In this document: in pieces, positions 2,036-19,607 of the stretch
How the letters are laid out: every line of letters starts with the position of its first letter
Numbering within the stretch: position 1 is the first letter of the stretch
Assembly: GCF_004010195.1 (NCBI RefSeq)
Contig: NC_057718.1
Coordinates: 69,316,616-69,336,615 of the forward strand
DNA length: 20,000 nt
Direction: 5' to 3'
Origin: Chiloscyllium plagiosum
Taxonomy: Eukaryota
Program-made: the position numbers and the translations under genes
The notes under the pieces: generated by a model
What the model was told of the DNA's origin: nothing
Database searches by the model: none
What the model saw: only the letters and a program-made list of their open reading frames with translations

Positions 2036-2662
2036 TTAGACTCAGACCAGGGCACGCACTTCACCGGACGCGCAATGAAACTGGCCTGCCGCCTCCTAGG
2101 CATCAGACAGCACTTCCACGTCCCGTTCCATCCCCAGAGCTCCGCGATGGTCGAACGCATGAACCGGACCCTCAAAGCGGCGATCGTGAGGGCGATCGTC
2201 GAAACAGGGCAGGGCTCGGTGGACGTTCTGCCCTGCATACTGAGGCGCTTAAGGGCCACCCCAGGCCGCTCCACTGGCATCACTCCCTTCGAGCTCATGA
2301 CGGGGAGGGCCATGTGACTACCAGAGAACGTCATGGTCGGGGGGGGAGACATGGCCCCCCTGAGGGACAGGGTGACGCGCTATATCAGGCAGCTGGACAC
2401 GCAGCTGCGGGCCCTTAGACAAATCGCGTGCGACCAGCAGGACATTAGGGACCAGGCAAAACTGCAGCCGCATCTGCCCGCCCAACCCCTTCCCGGCGTT
2501 GGGGACAAAGTCCTGGTCAGGGCCAACCCCGACCGGCCCAGCTTCACCCCCTGGTGGCTGGGACCACACGAAATCATCCTCACCAGCGACACGTGCGCCT
2601 GTGTCGACATGAAGGGAAAGGGCAGGTGGAAACACTGGTCCCAGCTTAAAACCTACCCTTAA
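2036..2662 (+). pseudogene. pol: Retroviral integrase (pol 3' end), one premature stop
   Basis: One frame reads LDSDQGTHFTG..FHVPFHPQSSAMVERMNRTLK..RATPGRSTGITPFELMTGRAM*LPE..GDKVLVR..WWLGPHEII..WKHWSQLKTYP*. It contains the second D and the E of DDE and a WxGP C-terminal domain. The TGA at 2315-2317 is probably CGA>TGA. Confidence 0.93.
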
Positions 2663-2707
2663 GCCCCGACCGGACAGACTCTCCTCACCTCCCCCCTTTT
2701 GACTTGA

Positions 2708-2828
2708 CTCTAACCGCCCCTCTTTCTCCTTACAGTGCAGCGGGTGGAGCGGTTCCAGGGAGACCTGCTCCTACACACACTAACCCTACACCCTTGGTAA
2801 GGGTGCCTCTCTCCCTCTCTTCCCACAG
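2708..2828 (+). promoter_or_regulatory. Two tandem 3' splice acceptors upstream of env
   Basis: Branch CTCTAAC 2708-2714 + pyrimidine tract + TACAG ending 2735. Branch CACTAAC 2778-2784 + CTCTCTCCCTCTCTTCCCACAG ending 2828, 3 nt before the env ATG at 2832. Confidence 0.7.
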
Positions 2829-2831
2829 ATC

Positions 2832-4610
2832 ATGCTTCACCGGTGCACCGCTCTCCTCCTCTTCGCCCTACGACTAGTGCCTTCCTTCCCCGTATTCTGT
2901 ATTCCTGCAAGGGACAAACCCGATGTGATCGACGCGTTCTACAATGCCTGGCTGGAAGTTCTCCCGGGCGTACAGACACTCTGTTTATTCTGCACGTCNN
3001 NNNNNNNNNNNNNNNNNNNNNNNNNNNNNNNNNNNNNNNNNNNNNNNNNNNNNNNNNNNNNNNNNNNNNNNNNNNNNNNNNNNNNNNNNNNNNNNNNNNN
3101 NNNNNNNNNNNNNNNNNNNNNNNNNNNNNNNNNNNNNNNNNNNNNNNNNNNNNNNNNNNNNNNNNNNNNNNNNNNNNNNNNNNNNNNNNNNNNNNNNNNN
3201 NNNNNNNNNNNNNNNNNNNNNNNNNNNNNNNNNNNNNNNNNNNNNNNNNNNNNNNNNNNNNNNNNNNNNNNNNNNNNNNNNNNNNNNNNNNNNNNNNNNN
3301 NNNNNNNNNNNNNNNNNNNNNNNNNNNNNNNNNNNNNNNNNNNNNNNNNNNNNNNNNNNNNNNNNNNNNNNNNNNNNNNNNNNNNNNNNNNNNNNNNNNN
3401 NNNNNNNNNNNNNNNNNNNNNNNNNNAGAGGGAGCATACATCCAGCTCGACGGCATTGCAGTCCTGGAAACACACGCCCACACCATTAACCGCCTTATAG
3501 ACCGGGCCATGCGTATGGCCTGTGGATGGTAGCCCAGATCCGGCATAATCTTGACCAGATCCAAAGGGGGGAGGTGCCCGATTGGATCGACAGTGCCAAA
3601 CTGGCCTCACTCGCGGGGCGCTCCGGGCCGCTCGACAGCCGGACTCTGAAGGGTATGACCAGAGTATACCCAGTGATGCCTGACTTTGAGGTCAGTGAGG
3701 CGACAGGAGTCGGGATTGTCCTCCTGATCCCCGTGGTCACCCCAGAGTCGGGACCATTTCCCCTGTTTCACATTGAGAACATAGGAGTCATACGCTTCCA
3801 TCAAATATCGATTAGCTCACCACACAGCCATTTCTCGAAACGGCGCTGTGTACGGGGTGCCGCTTACAGGCTGCAAGCAGCAGGGGGCAATTACCATCTG
3901 CCCTCACCCCTTACGAAGGAGTGAAACAGCAGACTGCAGGTTCAACCAGACACAGGGCTGCATCCTTAAAATCGAACCCACGGGCTCCCACTTCACTAGG
4001 GCGGGGTATGGTGGGGGGGACGATATTGTGTCTCCACTCTTGAAACCTCATTTTGGTATAATGGATTGCAGTGCCTTATTCCCCAGCACGAGTTCTGCTT
4101 CACCCCCAGGCGCCCAGTCACGGTTGGGCAAGCTCACATCTCAGAGGTCCGACGACGGAACCCTGAGTCCACACAAACTACTGATAAATTCAGGGACACC
4201 CTCAGGGAATATCAGGAGTCCGAACAAGCCCCCATCCCACATTTGGCTGAGGTCTTATGGGAGCTTAGGACCCGGATAGGACACTCAGTGAAATTGTATC
4301 ACCAGTTGCAGTCGCATGTAAAGGACCTAGAGAAGGGCACAGACACAGCTCTGCAGTCCCTGGGGTGGGCACAGAGGGTGTGGGATTGGGGCCTGAACGT
4401 AAACATCCATCCATGGATCCGAATCATCTCGCACACCATTGTAGGCATACAGTTACTGCTGGCTCTGGCCTGGCTCTGGCCTGGCTCCTGCTGGCGTGTC
4501 ATTCATGCCGCCAGCACAAGAAACGAAAGGCCAGGAAGACCATGCTCCACGCCATTGACTCCTGGCGGGCGATCAGGCACTGTGAGCCCACAGGGCTCGA
4601 GTTAATGTGA
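2832..4610 (+). pseudogene. env: env pseudogene encoding a paramyxovirus/Mononegavirales F-like class I fusion glycoprotein (at least 4 frameshifts, N gap inside)
   Basis: Signal peptide MLHRCTALLLFALRLVPS. After the gap: IQLDGIAVLETHAHTINRLIDR.. / VAQIRHNLDQIQRGEVPDWID..IGIVLLIPVV..PLFHIENIGVIR / ASIKYRLAHHTAISRNGAVYGVPLTGCKQQGAITICPHPLRRSETADCRFNQTQGCILKIE..GYGGG / RYCVST..CLIPQHEFCF..heptad LYHQLQSHVKDLEKG..TM WIRIISHTIVGIQLLLALAW / LLLACHSCRQHKKRKARK..LELM*. Frame switches at ~3528, ~3795, G7 4013-4019 and an 11-bp duplication at 4459-4480. Confidence 0.85.
2999..3426. other. Assembly gap inside env
   Basis: Run of N. It probably hides the cleavage site and fusion peptide. Confidence 1.
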
Positions 4611-4733
4611 CCTTCTCCCGGGACTATCCAAAGGCCCCATGACTGCAGCATGACGGCCGGCGAAATGTACCGGGCGAGGAGCTGACTTTTAAAATATCGG
4701 CATCGGGGGTGTGGACGTGTCCAACCCCTTGCC

Positions 4734-4744
4734 GAAAGGGGGGA
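4734..4744 (+). promoter_or_regulatory. Polypurine tract
   Basis: GAAAGGGGGGA followed by C and then the TG that starts the LTR. Confidence 0.85.
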
Positions 4745-4745
4745 C

Positions 4746-5147
4746 TGCAAGCGGGCATCAGAGCCGCCCTGCTTTTGCCATGGGACTATGCCTACATCAG
4801 GAAACTATAAGAATTCATTTTGTGTTTTAAACAGCAGTCGCAGCTTTAAACCCATAGAACTCAGCAGCTGCCGGTCCGGCCACGTGACCGGGAGATAGGA
4901 GACAGAGGACAGATCAAATCCACACTAGACCAACACTATCCATGACTCATAGACCAAAACTCCGGAATTAATTAATATGGAAACCCATCTCCTAATCACA
5001 TCAAGAGACTAACTGAAACACACCCATGGAGAGCAGTCGAGATTCGGACCTCGGTTGGTCTCCGCCGGCGTTACTGTAGCAATAAACGTTACCGATTGTT
5101 GAACCGCACTCTGGGCTCGGACTGATATCATTTCATCCGCGCTAACA
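4746..5147 (+). repeat. 3' LTR of the ERV (402 bp)
   Basis: TGCAAGCG...CGCTAACA imperfect terminal inverted repeat (6/8), directly after the PPT. AATAAA at 5081-5086, E-box CACGTG at 4881-4886. An unrelated LINE begins at 5148. Confidence 0.85.
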
Positions 5148-6215
5148 GTAGCATGGAGGGGAACTTGCAGGTTGTGATGCCTTCCTGGATGGAAGAGGTC
5201 ATGAGTTTGGAAATTACTGTCTAAGGATCTTTGGTGAATTTCTGCAGAGTATTTATAGATAGTACATACTGCTATTATTGAGCATTAGTGATGGAGGCGT
5301 TGTGGGGAAAATCATCAGTCTCGGAGTCAGAATCGGGATTCAACGACAGAGTTTATTGTACAAAGACACCGGAGCTCTGGGGAGAGAGAGAGAGAGACGT
5401 TCAGCAGCACAGCTGTCAGCTGTGAGCCTTCTCTCACCCTTGGAGCACATGCCACAATATTTTATACATTTTATAGTATAATGGTCCAAATATCGAGTTT
5501 TTGTTTGTACAGCATTGTTTGTTTACAGAAAACATTACAGAGTCATTATCAGTTTCAGAGAAATGTTACAAAGTCATTGTCAGTTTCAGCAGCTATATGC
5601 AAGTCCTTTGCTGCAGTAATTGGTCCTGAGAAGGAAGATCATTTTCCATTACTGCAAATCTAAGGTATTAACACTTGCAGGTATTAACACAGCAGTCTCA
5701 GATAGTTAACATTTCTGTTGAAGGTAGTGGCTGGACACTTTGGGGGGCAGTAGACGTTACTGACGTGTATTCTCTCCCCCACTCACCTTAAACTAATTAT
5801 CTATGTTCTGTGTCTATTTTGCCGGTATCCTGTTGGCCTCAGATAGTATGCTTCACTGTACTTTTCAGCTAATGGCTCAGCTGCCATCTAGTGTGCTCAG
5901 TGACAATTTAGGGCTCAGTGGCCATCTTGTGTCTCTGTGCCCTGTGTCAGCATGCCACGTGTCAACACTTACTTCAGAGGGCATGGATGTTTGTGGATAT
6001 GATGCCAATCAAGTGGGCTGCTTTGGTCTGGATGATATCAAGCTTCTTGAGTGTTATTAGAACTGTACTCATCCATGCAAAGTGGGGAGCATTCTATCAC
6101 ACTCCTGACTTTGGGAAATCAGGAGGTGAGTTACTCACTGCAGTATTCCTAGCCTGTGACCTGCTGTTGTAGTGATTGCATTATATGGCAAGTTTCTGCT
6201 CAATGCTAACCTCCA
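5148..6215 (-). mobile_element. CR1/L2-group LINE ORF2 fragment, split by a solo LTR (5298-5976)
   Basis: The minus strand gives VRSVIECSPL..WMSTVLITLKKLDIIQTKAAHLIGI (5985-6110), continuing across the insertion into LHH*CSIIAVCTIYK (5250-5297). Confidence 0.75.
5298..5976 (-). mobile_element. Solo LTR (679 bp) with GAGG target-site duplication
   Basis: CGTTG(=TGTTG)...CTTCA flanked by GAGG at 5294-5297 and 5977-5980. Removing it restores the LINE. Minus-strand TATAAAA 5460-5466 and AATAAA 5352-5357. Enhancer-like repeats at 5527-5589 and AGGTATTAACAC at 5663 and 5679. Confidence 0.8.
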
Positions 6216-6659
6216 TTGGCTTTTAGTTTAGTTTATATTTTAGGAGTTATATGTTGATGTCAGAATGCAGTGTGTGCCTGTATCAGTTTGGAATATGTAT
6301 GGTTGAGTTGATGTCCCCTTTTAAGGAATGATCAGAGGGTGTGTAAAATAAATCCTACTGTTAATTTGGAATTAGTTTCTTAAGGATTTGGTGAAAATTT
6401 ACCTAATGGAATTGGTTGTAATTTTGTGAAACCAGTTGAAGGAAAGAAAGAATTTAAGTTAAAGGCTTAACTTATTTCCTCTCTCTTTAATATGCGATAC
6501 TATCTATGTTGTATTTTGTTTGAGGAAAGAGTCCTGGGTAAATGGTGAGTTTCAAAACCTTTATAATTGCATTATTGTGTTTGGAATTTCAGGTTCTAGC
6601 CAGAAAGAACTTCCAAATATCATTGTAATATGAGTGAATCTTTAGTTCTGGATATTAAG

Positions 6660-6772
6660 ATTAAGATATGGAGGATAGTGGGTTAGTATAGGTTAGGTGG
6701 GCTTGGATCGGCGCAACATCGAGGGCCAAAGGGCCTGTACTGCGCTGTATTCTTCTATGTTCTATGTTCTAT
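6660..6772 (+). mobile_element. Short CR1 3' end (TTCTATG-tail family)
   Basis: GGGCCAAAGGGCCTGTACTGCGCTGTA stem-loop followed by TTCTATGTTCTATGTTCTAT. Confidence 0.85.
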
Positions 6773-7995
6773 TTGCTCATCTTAAATGTTTGTTGATGTG
6801 ACTTGGTGCTTTAAAACTGGAGATAATTTTGGAACAGAATTACCCAACAGCAAAAATCGAAACATGCCAGACAGAAATCTGTGAACAGACAGCAACTGGA
6901 GGTGTTATTTTGCAAGGTAAGGCAGGTAACCTTGACACTGTAGCTGACAACGTTTTCCTAACTGTTCCATCCCCGTGTATTGAGACAAGGTCAATGAGTA
7001 ATGTCACCCACGAGCCAGTAGGGGCAGACAAGTCACAAGTCCTAACAAGGGTTAGGACAAGTCTCTTTACCAAAGCCTTTTGTGAAAATTGGATTGTATC
7101 ACTGAGTTTCCATGGCAGTTTTTGAACTAAATACATGAAAGGCTGACACTACATCACCTGGTGACTTGGGCCCTGCACCTTCTGAGACCAGCAGAGTTAA
7201 CTCTTCGTGTTGGCAGTTTTAAATCTTCTTGCATAACTTCTGTGGGGTGAAATATAATGTTTGAAACTTATTAACCCATTAGGCTTCTTCAAAAGCCACA
7301 GTGGATTTTACCTTTTTGTTTTTTTTTTGAACAGCTTTTCATGAGTACAGCTAGGGAGCTGGAAGTCTTGCAAGATAAAACCTTTGAAAACAGGAAACCC
7401 CTAAACTGAATACAATCACCTAATATTAGAGTGTTTAAAACCACTAAGCCTGGGTGTAATTGTTAGTGAATTTGGGATGAATTAAAATTACTTGATGCAA
7501 GTTGCTAGTTCAAGCTCACAATGGGAAATTCAATTAAAGGGAAAATACAATTAAAAATGTAAGTTTTAATTTAAAACAAGTGGAAACGTTCTAAGTGGTT
7601 TTAGTTTTTATCAGAATAAAATGGACTAGCTTAGGAAGAAATTAGTAGATTACTAATTGAACCTGTTAGCCGTACAACACTGAGGCTGTACACAAAATAA
7701 ACCCTTGAGTCTATTGCTGTCAACTTGAATTTAGAATAATTTTGAAAGATGGAAAGTTGAGTATAAGGAGTTATGTTTGAAAATATAGTAACACCAAACA
7801 AATGAAAATTGGTAATGCTTGAAACCACACAGCAGTAATGTTTATCTCTTTTAAAGCTATTGTGGAAACATGCTTTTTATTTACTTTTCTCCAGAGTCCC
7901 TAAATGGTAATTAATAGCCGTCATACTTTGGAATAAACAAAAACTGACAGTAAAGAAGTGACACAGAATCAAATGGAAATGAGAATATCGCCTTT

Positions 7996-8457
7996 TAGAA
8001 CCATAGAGTATTACAGCACAGAGACAGGCTCTTTGACCCAAACTGATCCATGACGATCAAAATGTCCATCCACACTAACCCCATTTCCCTGCACTTGGCC
8101 TATATCCTTCTAAGCCTTTCCTACCCATGTATTTGTCCAAGTGCCTTTCAAATGTTGTTAATGTACCTACCTCAACCATTTCTGGCCACTCATTCCATTT
8201 GCATACTACTCTGTGTTTTTTAAAAAAAGATTAATTCTCAGGTTCCCTTTTATTCTTTCCCTGCTAACCTTAAACTGATGCCCTCTAGTCCTCAATTCCT
8301 CAACCCTGGGGTAAAAAAAACTGAGCGCATTCATCCTATCCAAGGTTCTCATGATCTATAAGATACCCCTCAATCTCCTATGCTTTAAAGAAAAGGTCCT
8401 AGTTTGGCCAACCTCTCCCTGTAAATCAGACTGTTGAGTACTGGCAACATCCCTTGT
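7996..8457 (-). mobile_element. CR1 3' fragment
   Basis: Reverse complement of the CR1 3' end: TAGAACCATAGA tail, CCCATTTCCCTGCACTTGGCC, TAAGCCTTTCCTACCCATGTATTTGTCCAAGTGCC, through GGCAACATCC. Confidence 0.85.
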
Positions 8458-8967
8458 TATAGTTACGTGGAATATATCCAATGAAATCAAAGTGTAGATA
8501 GAAATATATAGTAAATAGCTTTCTTTTGGAGATATGTACTTTTGCCTGTGAGGTCATTTTTGAAAAAGGGAACTAAATTGGCTGATTTGGCCAGCACCAG
8601 GAACATTGGAATCAGGTGAGGAGGATGCACAGGCACCTTCTGTCGACTTCTGATCATTGGAAAGATTGGCTGAAAGTTAAAAATGTGTGACATAGCCTTG
8701 GGATACTAATGTAAGTGTGTAAAAGTGATTGCAACATTAAGTAATAAGTATGAGAGAATATGTTGCCATTTCTTTGCCATCAGTACCCAGCAGGAAGACA
8801 AAGCAGTGAGACTCATTAGTTTGCATAAAATATACATAAAGTAGTTTACATTGATAGATTTGCTGATTAGTTTGTATAGATATTAAGTGCATTAAGCTAA
8901 CAGATTTGGAAGAGCACATGTCTTATATTTGTTTTGATCAGACTTTAAAAAATCTATTAGGTACTTT

Positions 8968-10351: not shown

Positions 10352-11652
10352 ATGACTGCCTTTAGTAGAGTGATGTGCTCTTCCTGTCAGATACGGGAGA
10401 TTGAGAGTTTCCATGTTACTGATGATTATGTCTGCAGGAAGTGCATTTGGTTGCAAATCCTATCCAATCACATGGATCAGTTTGAGCAGCAGTTCAACAC
10501 GGAAACAAAATCTTTAGTCCAACTCGTCCACACTAACCAGATAGCACAAATGATCTAGTCCCATTTGTCAGCACTTGGCCAATATCCCTCTAAACTCTTC
10601 CTATTTATATGCCCATCCAGATGCCTTTTAAATGTTGTAATTGTACCAGCCTCTACCACTTCCTCTGGCAGCTCATTCCATACACTTACCACCCTCTGTG
10701 AGAAAAAGTTGCCCCTTAGGTACCTTTTAAATTTCTTCCCCTCTCAGCCTAAACCTCTGCCCTCTAGTTCAGGACTCTCTCATCCTAGGGAAATGACCTT
10801 GTCTACTTACCTTATCCATGCCTCTCATGATTTTATAAACCTCTATAAGTCCACCCCTCAGAAGCAATGAGGAATTAACAGGAGCTAATGGGTGTGATGG
10901 ATGGCAGTTATATGAAGGGAGAAAAACCACAAATATAGTCAGTGTTAACTCCAGGAAAGGTAGAAAAGAGAGGTAGGTATGGAGGCGTCCTCTGTGGCTA
11001 TCCCCATCTCAAACAAATATGCTGTTTTGGAAAATGTAGGTGGTGATGGACTCTCAGGGTAATGTAGCACGAACAGTCAAGTTTCTGGTACTGAGACTGG
11101 CTCTGATGTTATGAGGAATACATCAGGTTCCAAGAGATTGATTGATTGTGATAGGGGATTGTTCAGTCAGAGGCACAGACAGGCGTTTCTGTGGCTGACA
11201 GCGAGAAATCAGAATGGTATGTTGCCTCCCTAGTGCCAGGATCAAGGATATATCTGAGAGAGTACAGAATATTCTCAAAGGTGAGTGAGACCAGCATGAG
11301 GCCATTGTACACATTGGAATTCATGGCATACGAAGTGACAAGGATGAGATTCTGAAGGGAAAATATAGAAAGTTGGCAGGAATTTAAAAAGGAGGTCCTC
11401 TAGGGTAGTAATATCTGGATTACACCCATTGCCACGAACTAGTGAGGGTAGGAATAGGAGGATTGAGCAGATAAATATGTGGCTGAGGAGCTGGTGCAGA
11501 GGAGCAGAGTTCACATTTTTGGATCATTGGAATCTCTTTTATTTCAGGATAAAAGTGACCTGTAAAATCAGGAGAGATTGCATGTGAATTGGAAGAGGAC
11601 CAATATACTAGCAGGGGTCATTTCCTGGAGCTGTTGGGTAGGATTAAACTAG
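10352..11652 (+). pseudogene. CR1 ORF1 (CxxC..CxxC zinc finger + SGNH/GDSL-type esterase), disrupted
   Basis: VMCSSCQ..YVCRKCIWLQ..EQQL|EAMRN, then VIGDCSVRGTDRRFCG, CLPSARIKDISERV, IVHIG, VVISGL, NMWLRSWC, LHVNWKRTNILAG. Multiple stops. Confidence 0.85.
10495..10859 (-). mobile_element. CR1 3' fragment inserted antisense into host ORF1
   Basis: Reverse complement of the CR1 3' end (CCCATCCAGATGCCTTTTAAATG, CACTTCCTCTGGCAGCTCATTCCA). Removing it joins CAG TT|A GAA GCA ATG in frame. Confidence 0.88.
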
Positions 11653-12562
11653 TAAGCTGGAAGGTGGGGTGGGACCCAGGGAGATAGTGAGGAAAGAGAG
11701 CAATCTGAGACTGGTGCAGTTGAGGAAAGGAGCAAGTCCAAAGTCAGGGCAGGCAGGGACAAAGCAGACAACAAGGTAGGACTGATAAATTAAACTGCAT
11801 TAAATGCAGGAGGCCCAACAGGGAAGTCGGAAGAACTGAGTGTGGTTAGGAACATGGGACTGGGATATTATAGCAATTACAGAAACTTGGCTCAGAGAAT
11901 GACAGAACTGGCAGCTTAATATTCCAGGATACAAATGATGTAGGAAGGATAGAAAGGGGGACAAGAGAGGAGGGGAAATGGCCGTTTCGATAAGAGACCA
12001 CATTATAGTTGTACTTGGGAAGGGTATTCCTGGAAATATGTCCAGAGAAGTTATTTGGGTGGAATAGAGAAATAAGAAAGGGATAATTACCTTATTGGGA
12101 CTGTACTATAGACCCCTCCGATTGTCAGTGGGAAATTGAGAAACAAATTTGTGAGGAGCCCTCCATTATCTGTAAGAATAATGGGAGACCTTCAAAAATG
12201 AGAAAGCGAGAGTTCAGAGACAGTATGTTCCTGTCAGGATGAAAAGCAAGGCAATGCTAGATGACTAGTGAAAGGTTTTTTCAAGGAAAAAGAAGCATAT
12301 GTCAGATATAGACAGCAGAGATCGAGTGAATGGTTAAAGTATAAAGGCAGTAGGAATATATTTAAGAGGGAAAACAGGAGGGCAAATAGGAGCATGGCTT
12401 TGGCAAATAGGTTTAAGGAGAATCCAAAGGGATTTTATAAATATTTTAAGGACAAAAGGGTAGCCAGGGAGAGAATATGACCCCTCAAAGATCAGCAAAG
12501 CACCTGATGTGTGGAACTGCAAGAGATGGGGTAGACACTACCCCGTCAGATGTACTGTGGAA

Positions 12563-12682
12563 ACACTATCTGAGGTACTAAGGGAGAACTCTCTGAGGTA
12601 ATGAGGGAGTACTATCTGAATTATTGAGGGAGCACTATCTGATGTACTGACGAAGCAGTATCTGATGCATTGAGGGAGAACT
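12563..12682. repeat. 23-bp minisatellite, ~5.2 degenerate units (consensus GCACTATCTGATGTACTGAGGGA)
   Basis: Units start at 12563, 12586, 12609, 12632, 12655 and 12678 (partial). A related longer unit lies at ~12535-12562. Confidence 0.85.
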
Positions 12683-13066
12683 CCCATATTTTCATCAGTG
12701 TTCACTTTGGAGAAGGACATGGAAGATATAGAATGTGGGGAAATGGATGGTGACATCTCGAAAAAGATCATATTACAGAAGAGGTGGTGCTGGATGTCTT
12801 AAAACACATAGGTGGATAAATCCCCAGGATCAAATCAGGTGTACCCTAGAACTCTGGGAAGCTGGGCAAGTGATTGCTGGGCCTCTTGCTGAGATAATTG
12901 TATCATCGATAGTCACAGATGAGGTGCCGGAAGACTAGAGGCTGGCTAACGTGGTGCCAATATTTAAGAAAGGTGGTAAGGAAAAGCGCGGGAACTGTAG
13001 ACTGGTGAGCCTGACATCTGTGGAGGAAATTCTGAGGGACAGGATTTAAATGTATTTGGAAACTCT

Positions 13067-13165: not shown

Positions 13166-13881
13166 GGCAAGGACTGATTGGGGTGGTCAACATGGCTTTG
13201 TGTGTGGGAAATCATAGTACATAGCATATAGAACATAGAACGTTACAACACAGTACAGGCCCTTTGGCCCTTGATGTTGCACCGACCTGTGGAACCAATC
13301 TGAATCCCATCTAACCTACAGTATTCCATTTTCATCCATATGTCTATCCAATGACCATTTAAATGCCCTTAAAGCTGGCAAGTCTACTATTGTTGCAGGC
13401 AAGGTGTTCCACGCCCCCTACTACTGTCTGAGTAAAGAAGCAACCTCTGATATTTGTCTTATATCTAACACCTCTCAATTTAAAGCTATGTCCCCTCGTG
13501 CTAGCCATCACCATCCAAAGAAAACGGCTCTCACTGTCCAACCTATCTAACCCTCTGATTATCTTCTATCTCAATTAAGTTGCCTCTGAACATTCTCTCT
13601 AACAAAAACAACCTAAAGTCCCTCAGCCTTTCCTTATAAGACCTTCCTTCCATTCCAGGCAACATCCTAGTAAATCTCCTCTGAATCCTTTCCAAAGCTT
13701 CCACATCCTTCCTACAATGCGGTGACCAGAGCTCGCACCTGATGTGTCGCACCAGACCAGACCACGCAATACTCTAAATGTGGCCACACAAATTGTTTTG
13801 TACAACTGCAGCATGACCTTGTGTTTCCGAAACTCAACCTTTCTACCAATAAAAGTTAATACACTGCATGCCTTCTTAACA

Positions 13882-13948
13882 ACCAACATCTACTACAAAC
13901 CAACCGACTCCCACAGCTACCTGGACTACACCTCCTCCCATCCTGCCC
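13882..13948 (+). mobile_element. Penelope RT fragment captured at a deletion in the CR1
   Basis: Encodes TNIYYKPTDSHSYLDYTSSHPA, matching the Penelope RT C-terminal motif (YxKPT....YL...S.HP). Confidence 0.8.
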
Positions 13949-15604
13949 ATCTCTCTGCTCATCTACATGACCAAAAATCTTACCATTTGCCCAGTAATCT
14001 GCACTCCTGTTGCTCCTTCTGAAATGAATCTCCTCACACTTTTCCACATTAAACTCCATTTGCCACCACTCAGCCCAACTCTGTAGCTTATCTATGTCTC
14101 TCTGTAACCTACAACATTCTTAGTTACTATCTACGACTCTACCAACTTTGTGTCATTTGCAAATTTACTAACCCATCCTTCTATACCCTCAGCTAGGTCA
14201 TTTATATAAATGACAAACAACAGTGGGCCCAAAAATGATCTTTGCAGTACCCCACTAGTAATTGAACTTCAGAATGAATATTTCCCATCAACGTTCACCC
14301 TTTGTCTTCTTTCAGCTAGCCAGTTTCTGATCCAAACTGCTATATCACCCTCAGTCCCATGCCTCCATATTTTGTGCAATAGCCTACCATGCAGAAACTT
14401 ATCAAACACCTTACTGAAATCCATATACGCCACATCAACCACTTTACCCTCATCCACCTGTTGGTGACCATCTCAAAGAACTCTAAGGTTTGTGAGACAT
14501 GACCTACCCTTCACAAAACCGTGTTGACTATCTCTAATCAACTTATTCCTCTATAGATGATTATAAATCCTATCTCTTATAACCCTTTCCAAAACTTTAC
14601 CCACAACCGAAGTAAGGCTCACTGGTCTATAATTTCCAGGGCTGTCTCTACTGCCCTTAAACAAGGGAACAACATTTGCTATCCTCCAGTCTTCTGGCAT
14701 AATTCCTGTAGGGAATGACAACATAAATATCAAAGCCAAAAGCTTGGCAATTCCCTCCCTGGCTTCCCAGAAAATCCTAGAATTAATCTCATCCGGCCAA
14801 GGGGATTTATCTATTTTTACACTTTCCAGAATTGTTGACACCTCCTCCTTGTGCACCTCAATCCCAATTAGTCTAGTAACCTGTTTCTCAGTACTTTCCT
14901 CAACCACATTGTCTTTTTCTCGCGTTCCCTATCTCCTCTGGTTCCACGCACAAATTCCCACTACTATGCTTGATGGCCCTAATCTTACTTTTGTCATACT
15001 TTTATTTCTGATATAGCTATAGAAAGCCTTAGAGTTTTCCTTGATCCTGTCTGCCAATAAGTTCTCATGTCCCCTCCTGGCTCTCTTTAGCTCTTTCTTG
15101 GCTAACGTGTAACACTCAAGCTCTCTAAATTAGCCATCACATCTCATCCTAACATAAGCCGCCTTCTTCCTCCTGACAAGACATTCAACTTCCTTAGTAA
15201 ACCACTGCTCCCGCGTTTGACAACTTCCTCCCCGCCTGACAGGTACATACTTATCAAGGACTTGCAGTAATTGGTCCTTAAATAAGCTTCACACTTCTAT
15301 TGTGCCCATCCCCTGCAGTTTTCTTCCTCATCCTATGTATCCTAAACCTTTCTTAATCACATTGTAATTGCCTTTTCCCCCAGCTATAACTATTACCCTG
15401 CGGTGTACACCAATCCCTTTCCATCATTAAAATAAACATAACCGAATTGTGGTCACTATCACAAAAGTGCTCACCTACCTCCAAATCTAACACCTGGCTG
15501 GGTTCATTACCAACACCAAATTGAATGTCGCCTCACCCCTTGTTAGCCTGTCTACAGGAAACCCTCCTGCACACACTGGACAAAAACTGACCCAGCTAAA
15601 GTAC

Positions 15605-16260
15605 ATAGAACATAGAACATAGAACAATACAGCACAGAACAGGCCCTTCGGCCCACGATGTTGTGCCGAACATTTGTCCTAGCTTAAGCACCCATCCATG
15701 TACCTATCCAATTGCCGCTTAAAGGTCACCAAAGATTCTGACTCTANNNNNNNNNNNNNNNNNNNNNNNNNNNNNNNNNNNNNNNNNNNNNNNNNNNNNN
15801 NNNNNNNNNNNNNNNNNNNNNNNNNNNNNNNNNNNNNNNNNNNNNNNNNNNNNNNNNNNNNNNNNNNNNNNNNNNNNNNNNNNNNNNNNNNNNNNNNNNN
15901 NNNNNNNNNNNNNNNNNNNNNNNNNNNNCTGTAACATCACTTCACGACTCTTGAATTCAATCACTCTGCTAATCAACGCTAATACACCATAGGCCTTCTT
16001 ACAAGCTCTATCCACATGAGTGGTAACTTTCAAAGATCTAGAACATAGACCCCAAGATCCCTCTGTTCCTCCACCTCACTAAGAACCCTACCGTTAACCC
16101 TGTATTCCGCATTCTTATTTAAATTTCCAAAATGGACAACCTCACACTTGGCAGGGTTGAACTCCATCTGCCACTCCTCAGCCCAGCTCTGCATCATATC
16201 TAAGTCCCTTTGCAGCCGACAACAGCCCTCCTCACTATCCACAACTCCACCAATCTTCGT
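15605..16260 (-). mobile_element. Young 5'-truncated CR1 (TTCTATG tail) nested in the antisense CR1, contains an N gap
   Basis: Perfect (CATAGAA)3 tail. Well-preserved DSEEGCCRLQRDLD..WAEEWQMEFNPAKCEVVHFG. AGTAC duplicated at 15600-15604 and 16266-16270. Confidence 0.88.
15747..15928. other. Assembly gap
   Basis: Run of N. Confidence 1.
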
Positions 16261-17203
16261 ACTATAGTACTTGAACTATAGTATTCCCAGTCAATATTTG
16301 GAAAGTTAAAGCTCCCCCATAACAACTACCCTGTCACTCTTGCTCCTATCGAGGATTATCTTTGCTATCCTTTCCTCTATGTCTCTGGAACTATTCGGAG
16401 GCCTTTACAAAACTCCCAACAGGGTGACCTCTCCTTTCCTGTTTCTAATCTCAGCCCATGCTATCTCAGTAGATGAGTCCTCAAACGTCCTTCCTGCAAC
16501 CGTAATACTGCCACACCACCCCCTCTTTTTATCATCTTCTGTTCTTACTGAAATATCTAAATCCCGGAAGCTGCAACAAACATTCCTGTCCCTGCACTAA
16601 CCATGTCTCTGAAATGGCCACAACATTGAAATCACAGGTACCAACCATGCTTTACCCACCTTTATTCCGGATGCTCCTGCGTTGAAGTAGACACACTTCA
16701 AACCAACTTCTTGCCTGCTGGTGTCTTCTTGTGACCTTGAAATCTAAGTTCTCTTGTCCTCCCGTATATTTGAATTGCAATTCAGGCTCCCATTCCCTTG
16801 CTGAATCAGTTTAAACCCACCCGAAGAGCATTAGCAAATTTCCCCTCCCAGGATATTGGTACCCCTCCGGTTCAGGTGAAGATTATCCTGTTTGTAGAGG
16901 TCCCAACTATCCCAGAAAGAGCCCCAATTATCCAGGAATCCAAAACCCTCCCTCCTGCACCATCCCTGTAACCACATGTTCAACTCCTTTCTCCCCCTTT
17001 TCCTCGCTTTGCTAGCATGTGGCATGGGCAACAAACCAGAGACAACAAGAGATAAAATTGATTGAGCTATTTGAAGAAATAATGAAGAAGTTTGGTGAGG
17101 GTAAAGTGATTGACATGATCTTTCTGGACTTCAGTAAGGCATTCAATAAGGTTCTACATGGTAGACTGATTGGCAAAGTTCAATCACATAGACTACAGGG
17201 AGA

Positions 17204-18146
17204 GGATCTTGACCAGATGGGCCAATGGGCTGAGAAGTGACAGATTGAGTTTAATTCAGATAAATGCGAGGTGCTGCATTTTGGGAAAGCAAATCTTAGC
17301 AGGACTTATACACCTTAATGGTAAGGTCCTAGGGAGTGTTGCTGAACAAAGAGACCTTGGAGTGCAGGTTCATAGCTCCTTGAAAGTGGAGTCACAGGTA
17401 GATAGGATGGTAAAGAAGGCGTTTGGTATGCGTTCCTTTATTGGTCAAAGTATCGAGTACAGGAGTTGGGAGGTCATGTTGCCACTGTACAGGACATTGG
17501 TTAGGCCACTGTTGGAATATTGTGTGCAATTCTGGTCTCCTTCCTATCGGAAAGATGTTGTGAAACTTGAAAGGGTTCAGAAAAGATTTACAAGGTTGTT
17601 GCCAGGGTTGGAGGATCTGAGCTATAGAGAGACNNNNNNNNNNNNNNNNNNNNNNNNNNNNNNNNNNNNNNNNNNNNNNNNNNNNNNNNNNNTTGCCAGG
17701 GTTGGAGGATTTGAGCTATAGGGAGAGGCTGAACAGGCTGGGGCTGTTTTCCCTGGAGTGTCGGAGGCTGAAGGGTGACCTTATAGAGGTTTACAAAATA
17801 ATGAGGGGCATGGATGGGGTAAATAGGCAAAGTCTTTTCCCTGGGGTCGGGGAGTCCAGAACTAAAGGGCATAGGTTTAGAGTGAGAGGGGAAAGATATA
17901 AAAGAGACCTAAGGGCAACTTTTTCATGTGTACGTGTATGGAATGAGCTGCCAGAGGAAGTGGTGGAGGCTGGTACAATTGCAACATTTAAGAGGCATTT
18001 GGATGGGTATATGAATAGGAAGGGTTTGGAGGGATATGGGCTGGGTGCTGGCAGGTGGGACTAGACTGGGTTGGAATATCTGGTCGGCTTGGACGGGTTG
18101 GACCGAAGGATCTGTTTCCATGCTGTACATCTCTATGACTCTATGA
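17204..18146 (+). mobile_element. 5'-truncated CR1 (CTATGACT tail) nested in the host CR1 RT
   Basis: LYRTLVRPLLEYCVQFWSP..LKGDLIEVYKIMRG..WNELPEEVV..GYGLGAGRWD* followed by CTCTATGACTCTATGA. The host joins as GGAGA|ACTAGCC (GELA). Confidence 0.9.
17634..17692. other. Assembly gap
   Basis: Run of N with about 34 bp duplicated on both sides. Confidence 1.
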
Positions 18147-19607
18147 ACTAGCCATTTGAAAGTAGAAGGTAGAGGGTTGCTTTTCCGACTGGAGGCCTGT
18201 GACCAGTGATATTCCACAAGGAGTGTTTTTTTTGTCATTTATATAAAAGATTTGGATGTGAACACATGTGGTATAGATAAGAAGTTTGCAGATGACACCA
18301 AAATTGGAGGTGCAGTAGACAGTGAAGAAGGTTACCTTCAAATACAACAATGGGCCAATGAGTGGCAGATGGACTTTAATTCAAATAAATCTGAGGTGAT
18401 GCAATTTGGAAAGGCAAATCATGGCAGGACATACACATAATGGTAAGGTCCTAAGGAGTGTCTCTGAACAAAGGTTTTGGAGTACAGGTTCACTGTTCCT
18501 TGAAAGTGTAGTTGCAAAAGATTGTGAAAACATTTGGTATGCTTTTCTTTATTGGTCAGAGCATGGACTATAGGAGTTGGGAGGTCATGTTGTGGTTGTA
18601 CAGGACACTTGGTTATGTCACTTTTGGAATAATGTACAATTCTGGTCTCCCTCCTTTTGGAAGGACAGTGTGAGACTTGAAAGGGTTTAGAAAAGATTTA
18701 CAAGGATGTTGCCAATGTTGGAGAGTTTGAGGTATAGGAAGAGGCTGGGTAGGCTGGCACTGTTTTCCCTGGAGGGTTGCAAGCTGAGGGGTGATCTTAG
18801 AGGTTTAGAAGTGGTAAGATAAAATCATGAGGGGTATGGATAGGATGGGGTTGGGGCATCCAGAACTAGAGAGCACAGGTGTAGAGTGAGAGAGGAAATA
18901 AATAAAAGGAACCCAAGGGGTAATTTTTTCACACATCAGGTGACGCTTGTGTGGAATGAGTTGCCAGAGGAAGTGGTAGACACTGGTACAATTACAATAT
19001 TTAAAAGGCACCTTGATGGACATATGGATAGGAAGGGGTTAGAGGGATATGGGCCAAGTGTTTGCAAATGGGACTAGATTAGGTTAGGATATCTGGTCAG
19101 CATGGACGAGTTGGACCAACAGGTCTGTTTCCATACTGTACATCTTTGACTCTGAGGACTGCACATACTTCTCCATACAGTGAGAAATGCTAGACCATGA
19201 TAACGAAGACATGTCTCCATCATCCAGTTGCATTTAGCCTCAGCGTATGCAGCAGCTTGGTTAAAGTGCCATGCTGGCTGAATGACTATTCAATGTAATT
19301 GAGAAGGATGTGCCTGCAGCATTCTGACACTTTTCTTACCCTAGAAACACATCAGTAACTTCTCACTGCATTCAGTATAGACTATGTTAAAGTTGACAGA
19401 TGATAAAGCAATAGTGTGTGGTTCCTACAACAACTATGGAATTTGCATAAATAATGATACACATTTGGGAAGTATTGGTCTTTTTATTGTCATTGCTATT
19501 TATTTCAATATCTTTGAGTTTCCCATATTCAATTTACAAGCACCAATGGCATTGTGCAAATTATCTTTGAGAAGCATCTGACAGAGGTCCTTCAATTCTT
19601 CTGCACT

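Follow-up and report, generated by a model that had tools for sequence, protein, structure and literature searches.

A truncated shark provirus with an integrase outside the lokiretrovirus clade and a predicted F-like envelope

The window analysed here, a 20,000-nucleotide stretch of the Chiloscyllium plagiosum genome, carries on its plus strand the rear half of an endogenous retrovirus, in the order integrase (IN), env, polypurine tract and LTR. The element is a dead, 5′-truncated provirus, likely from an unnamed lineage of true retroviruses of class III grade, with snakehead retrovirus (SnRV) as the likely nearest named virus and a spliced env that is predicted to be F-like. The first-pass annotation had described it as lokiretrovirus-like, an assignment that is not supported: the integrase falls outside the Loki clade in trees and AU tests, and the nearest full Pol, which serves as a proxy, has an RT that lies inside Retroviridae. 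The annotation had offered a host-range extension or a distinct lineage as possible outcomes; the distinct lineage holds, but the Loki host range is not extended.

The integrase remnant (2036–2662) comprises the C-terminal two thirds of the protein, from the second catalytic aspartate onward and including the C-terminal domain. It opens abruptly at 2036, just ahead of that aspartate, and is thus truncated at its 5′ end. Four integrase motifs share a single frame (2036–2659), which contains one internal TGA (2315–2317) and closes with a TAA at 2660–2662, and the top PDB matches of this fragment are retroviral integrases (E about 1e-9). The 5′ LTR, gag, protease, RT, RNase H and the N-terminal half of the integrase are absent from the element. 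Downstream of the integrase there are two polypyrimidine-AG tracts on the plus strand, at 2717–2735 and, immediately 5′ of the env ATG, at 2806–2828; both are candidate splice acceptors, the second for env, which would be expressed from a spliced RNA. The env pseudogene (2832–4610, plus strand) starts with a hydrophobic leader at ATG 2832 and ends with a membrane anchor, 124 nt before the polypurine tract (4734–4744, plus strand). The tract is followed by the putative 3′ LTR (4746–5147, plus strand), a stretch of 402 nt running from TG at 4746 to CA at 5147, with imperfect 8-bp inverted ends in which six of eight bases match, and with one AATAAA, at 5081. A second match to this LTR was not found within the window, and its ends, placed from this one LTR, are putative. 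The CpG observed/expected ratio is 0.72 in the integrase, 0.87 in the LTR and 0.60–0.87 across integrase, env and LTR, and it is 0.08–0.22 in the flanks. The anatomy of the remnant given by the first-pass annotation, with integrase motifs, an env behind splice-acceptor-like tracts, a polypurine tract and a short LTR, is real.

An assembly gap of 428 N (2999–3426) falls within env. The sequenced 3′ part, corresponding to the fusion subunit, can be followed in five frame segments with 78–93% amino acid identity to P0180 of Chiloscyllium punctatum, separated by four frame changes near 3506, 3795, 4016 and 4473. It had been remarked that the integrase has only one stop and keeps many CpGs; both features were found, but the four frame changes in env make the copy more decayed than the integrase suggests. 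The copy is a dead fragment, which would be able neither to replicate nor to make an intact Env.

Multiple related copies are present in sharks. A search with env gave four matches among 164 candidates, three of them from Chiloscyllium punctatum (79–88%) and one from Mustelus asterias (68%), and the IN searches retained 6 candidates out of 1128 and 11 out of 3024, with Chiloscyllium punctatum (70–82% over part of the length) and Heptranchias perlo (55%) among them. These relatives fit the cartilaginous-fish host that had been surmised from the letters alone, and make a carpet or bamboo shark likely. The better-preserved copies that had been anticipated do exist for env, and annotated relatives of the element occur in Chiloscyllium punctatum, Mustelus and Heptranchias. 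Parts of the stretch are present in 20 of the 24 listed sequencing runs, under four organism labels, with no RNA run listed among the holders. Contigs of two other organism labels span the junction between the flank and the integrase, with 6/278 and 17/636 letters different (about 2–3%); since the junction is bridged under both labels, the truncation is real, and it probably predates the divergence of those sharks. One raw RNA run (X22, about 2% read) yielded 53 reads, 50 of them partial matches, with no signal over integrase or env, a sample uninformative on expression. In all three contig runs the depth goes up over the LTR, which fits the existence of extra solo LTRs, depth not being a copy number.

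Several other repeats lie in the window. The stretch 512–1310 is CpG-rich (observed/expected 0.76 over 520–1290), and its minus strand has an AATAAA (607–612) and ends that are TG...CA-like. It resembles an unrelated solo LTR that has inserted next to a SINE-like repeat, and it gave no BLASTN match to the LTR at 4746–5147. A degenerate tandem repeat with a 23-nt period is found at 12546–12683. Many decayed LINE-type reverse transcriptase fragments and 3′ tails, which we take to be CR1-like, occupy 1–350, 10490–10860 and 13600–19200 on both strands.

The sequence of the integrase places it outside the Loki clade. Its nearest relative is P0168, with 53% identity over 210 aa, followed by P0166 (50%) and P0160 (48%); this 48–53% group is unnamed, and elements of cyprinids belong to it, as do turtle and eel elements that match over shorter lengths. 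Identity to five rows of the Loki clade, selected by their match to printed Loki sequences (P0064, for instance, starts like Loki-Lro), is 33–41%, in one case over 128 aa only. In a careful tree (LG+G4) of 38 rows, formed by part of a 76-row set and added references, the query groups with P0168 and P0166 at 97/94 and the Loki clade stands apart at 97/91, the same separation being obtained in a quick mixture-model tree of the 76 rows. The AU test rejects both the union of the query with Loki (p 7.5e-9) and that of query, P0168 and P0166 with Loki (p 1.5e-5). Trees of the kind that the first-pass annotation had recommended leave the query integrase outside Loki, which is represented by two RT and five IN rows. 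The foamy viruses are represented by mammalian rows, fish foamy-like ERVs and Odin being absent from the trees. Integrase identity is 35% to WDSV, 31% to SnRV, with which the query does not group, 33–34% over about 100 aa to mammalian foamy integrases, and 29–38% to Gypsy rows, which are distant in the trees. The amphibian Gag/Pol proteins P0023 (Bufo bufo “posterior protein-like”), P0025 and P0022 form an IN branch of their own (99/98) and have non-Loki RTs; many class III-grade Pols such as these are annotated as “NYNRIN-like”.

As the window itself is without RT, the position of this domain rests on proxies that are 40–53% identical to the query in IN. The nearest full Pol was taken to be P0177, of 1211 aa, which shares the 90% cluster of P0168. 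Integrase swaps have been reported among retroviruses (PMC7947760), so such a proxy can mislead. The RT motif of P0177 is LPQG, and all 24 Loki RTs printed in the supplement of Wang and Han (PMC7947760) have xPFG. An RT tree of 27 rows, with six Gypsy rows as its root, puts Loki as sister to all the others and P0177 among those others (96/94), where it forms one clade (93/96) with L004, L006 and L007, three elements from metagenome contigs. This clade forms a polytomy with SnRV, ERV-L-like and foamy rows, where the labels ERV-L-like, WEHV-like and SSSV-like are our own presumed assignments. The names of the WDSV and SnRV rows and of three foamy rows come from matches to sequences in that supplement. 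P0177 is split from the six Gypsy rows at 100/100, and the class I clade stands apart at 99/99. The AU test rejects P0177 with Loki in RT (p 0.018); with a shorter RT of 200 columns and more distant proxies, none of the three unions is rejected (p 0.067 for Loki, 0.17 for SnRV and 0.35 for foamy). The best named BLAST match of P0177 is SnRV (41%, 256 bits), Loki-like rows reaching 231 and 209 bits, and RT identity is 32–35% to foamy and 35% to WDSV. The order IN, env, polypurine tract and LTR in the window, together with the 96/94 position of the proxy RT, points to Retroviridae outside Loki. Class I (gamma/epsilon) membership is contradicted by a Pol outside the class I clade and by the envelope, as none of five shark Env proteins has an ISD or CX6CC. 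The lineage is likely an unnamed fish–shark–turtle branch of ordinary retroviruses near SnRV.

The gamma-type signatures looked for in those five Env proteins were LQNR (ISD) and CX6CC. An RxKR/RxRR site is present in three of the four shark Env proteins checked, and both full-length ones have a C-terminal hydrophobic anchor. Atlas features put P0009, a shark Env, near Baculo_F, Fusion_gly and Gypsy Env clusters (0.93–0.95; 0.93 for Fusion_gly), at a low recognition of 1970 for a threshold of 2300, and the env piece at 3785–4015 of the window gave no usable Atlas match. Pfam detected no fusion-protein family, PF00523 included, in the window Env or the relative Env, a PDB sequence search with the Env profile returned one chance match only, and AlphaFold models of P0009, built from the single sequence and from a 6-row alignment, reached pLDDT values of 35 and 32. 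Because Pfam, PDB and both structure models gave nothing, the F-like (measles-F-like) type of this env is given here as a prediction.

Homologous and possibly related envelopes occur elsewhere. The env of L004 is homologous to the shark env (E 3e-10), the sole match under E 0.5 among 313 ORFs. The fusion subunit of WDSV Env (L001) gives a weak but collinear alignment to the shark Env (19% over 450 aa, E 0.004; hhalign E 0.007). For SnRV Env (L039) a weak alignment extends across 126 columns (hhalign E 0.02, probability 2%), with no significant pairwise BLAST match between P0009 and SnRV Env; a control with the gamma-type Env of L036 gave E 0.21 over 20 columns. The coordinates of the WDSV and SnRV Envs in these alignments are L001:5962–9651 and L039:6131–9535. 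These alignments (E 0.004–0.02) are suggestive, at the level of sequence, of WDSV and SnRV Envs that may be F-like too. Foamy Env is described as structurally F-related (PMC11468914). Given foamy Env, the homologous env of L004 and the weakly aligned WDSV and SnRV Envs, an F-like Env is not diagnostic of Loki. Envelope types also differ within one RT clade: L004 carries the F-like env homologous to that of the sharks (6628–8892), and L007 a gamma-type env (4089–5828) with LQNRMALD (ISD). Exchange of env between L004- and L007-type elements is likely.

That the element is a shark lokiretrovirus which the 2021 RT screen failed to detect is very unlikely. Such an identity would account for an F-like env with an RxKR site, a hallmark of Loki (PMC7947760), for the motif order of the shark fusion subunit, which matches that of Loki-Xtr Env by eye, for the NYNRIN annotation of some relatives, and for the short-RT result of p 0.067. 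Against it stand the rejected IN clade, a proxy RT that lies in Retroviridae and is without xPFG, and the length of the region preceding the cleavage site, about 230 residues in the shark Env P0171 versus about 115 in Loki-Xtr. Moreover, the published screen (PMC7947760) found Loki in none of six chondrichthyan genomes, both Chiloscyllium species among them, in agreement with the statement in the first-pass annotation that this host group was missing from the reported range. By the same tests, the element is rejected as a lokiretrovirus both on IN (p 7.5e-9) and, through P0177, on RT (p 0.018). An env-bearing Ty3/Gypsy retrotransposon would explain why the top Atlas clusters of the shark Env are arthropod Gypsy/Baculo_F proteins, but it is extremely unlikely with IN so far from the Gypsy rows and the proxy RT apart from all six of them; both domains lie outside Metaviridae, and a Ty3/Gypsy errantivirus was rejected on this basis. 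In its accessible part, a 2026 errantivirus preprint reports no intact vertebrate homologues.

Two further readings keep the element among retroviruses. A fish foamy-like ERV of the CmiFLERV type (clade Tu) is very unlikely: foamy-like ERVs are known in chondrichthyans, foamy Env is F-related (PMC11468914), and the proxies are not separated from foamy by the AU test (p 0.35), but both IN and proxy RT are distant from foamy, P0177 follows SnRV by eye and has none of the ZFERV-2/AciFLERV/AliFLERV motifs, and the interval from 4610 to 4734 leaves too little room for accessory genes. Very unlikely too, though compatible with the preferred explanation, is a recombinant with the Pol of one lineage and an env captured from a Loki-like or epsilon-like donor. 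The coexistence of F-like and gamma-type envs in one RT clade and the weak collinear likeness to WDSV Env would agree with such a capture; L004, however, couples a related Pol with a homologous env, which fits joint inheritance.

If the element is a truncated provirus of the unnamed SnRV-like lineage, its ancestor would have been an enveloped retrovirus that expressed gag-pro-pol from its LTR and env from a spliced RNA, its Env being cut, presumably by furin, at the RxKR/RxRR site to give a surface subunit and a fusion subunit of F-like type. This virus would have entered the shark germ line and multiplied. The present copy would then have lost its 5′ two thirds, become fixed before the host split from its close relatives, and decayed, so as to be now without a functional protein product. 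A broader reading is put forward tentatively, and may well prove wrong: these elements of sharks, bony fishes and turtles could form an unnamed genus-level branch with an F-like Env, swapped for a gamma-type one in some members. Taken with the Envs of SnRV, WDSV, foamy viruses and Loki, this would make the F-like fusogen the ancestral retroviral Env and not a trait particular to Loki.

These results do away with a tempting claim on host range, as a fish ERV is not identified as a lokiretrovirus by an F-like env. The element samples a little-described branch of fish and shark retroviruses whose env is neither gamma- nor beta-type, a kind outside what was sought by an anamniote Env survey (10.1101/2021.11.23.469661) that, in its accessible part, was confined to gamma- and beta-type Env. 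Further natural copies that retain RT would help to tell if the F-like Env is ancestral in retroviruses. No paper on an SnRV-grade shark ERV with an F-type env was found in the literature outside subscription journals, bioRxiv supplements, Dfam and Repbase; the accessible parts of PMC10435555, PMC10699275, PMC12287698, PMC13709493 and 10.1101/2023.10.26.564294 do not describe the shark family, and the P0001 and A2 scans of viral contigs found nothing.

Among known systems, Lokiretroviruses resemble the shark element in their Env, which is F-like and has an RxKR site, a signal peptide, a coiled coil and a membrane anchor (PMC7947760), the shark Env being predicted to be of this type, with motifs of this set present in its relatives. 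Lokiretroviruses also have a tether plus RNase H and an optional smc gene, features of a region that is deleted in the window. They differ in that the query IN and the proxy RT fall outside their clade, the proxy is without xPFG, and the surface subunit of the shark Env is longer. The epsilonretrovirus WDSV shares the weakly collinear fusion subunit, but its IN (35%) and RT (35% to the proxy) are distant and the class I clade is separate. CmiERV lineage I of Callorhinchus milii is an SnRV-related ERV of a cartilaginous fish with the same layout of gag-pol, AG tract, env and LTR, as far as the accessible part of PMC4422223 describes it; read by eye, it differs by a gamma-type env (LQNRMALD) and by an IN like that of P0087, a member of another branch with 32% identity to the query. 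Clade Huo or class III ERVs, SnRV-related ones included, have been reported from all major vertebrate lineages in the available text of PMC6001957. SnRV itself (L039, identified by its RT, which agrees with the SnRV row in the supplement of PMC7947760) is like the proxy Pol in its LPQG-type RT, the best named match, and like the shark element in its non-gamma Env, with the weak alignment over 126 columns. It differs in its IN, which does not group with the query, and in its long 3′ accessory ORFs, in place of which the shark element has 124 nt between env and the polypurine tract.
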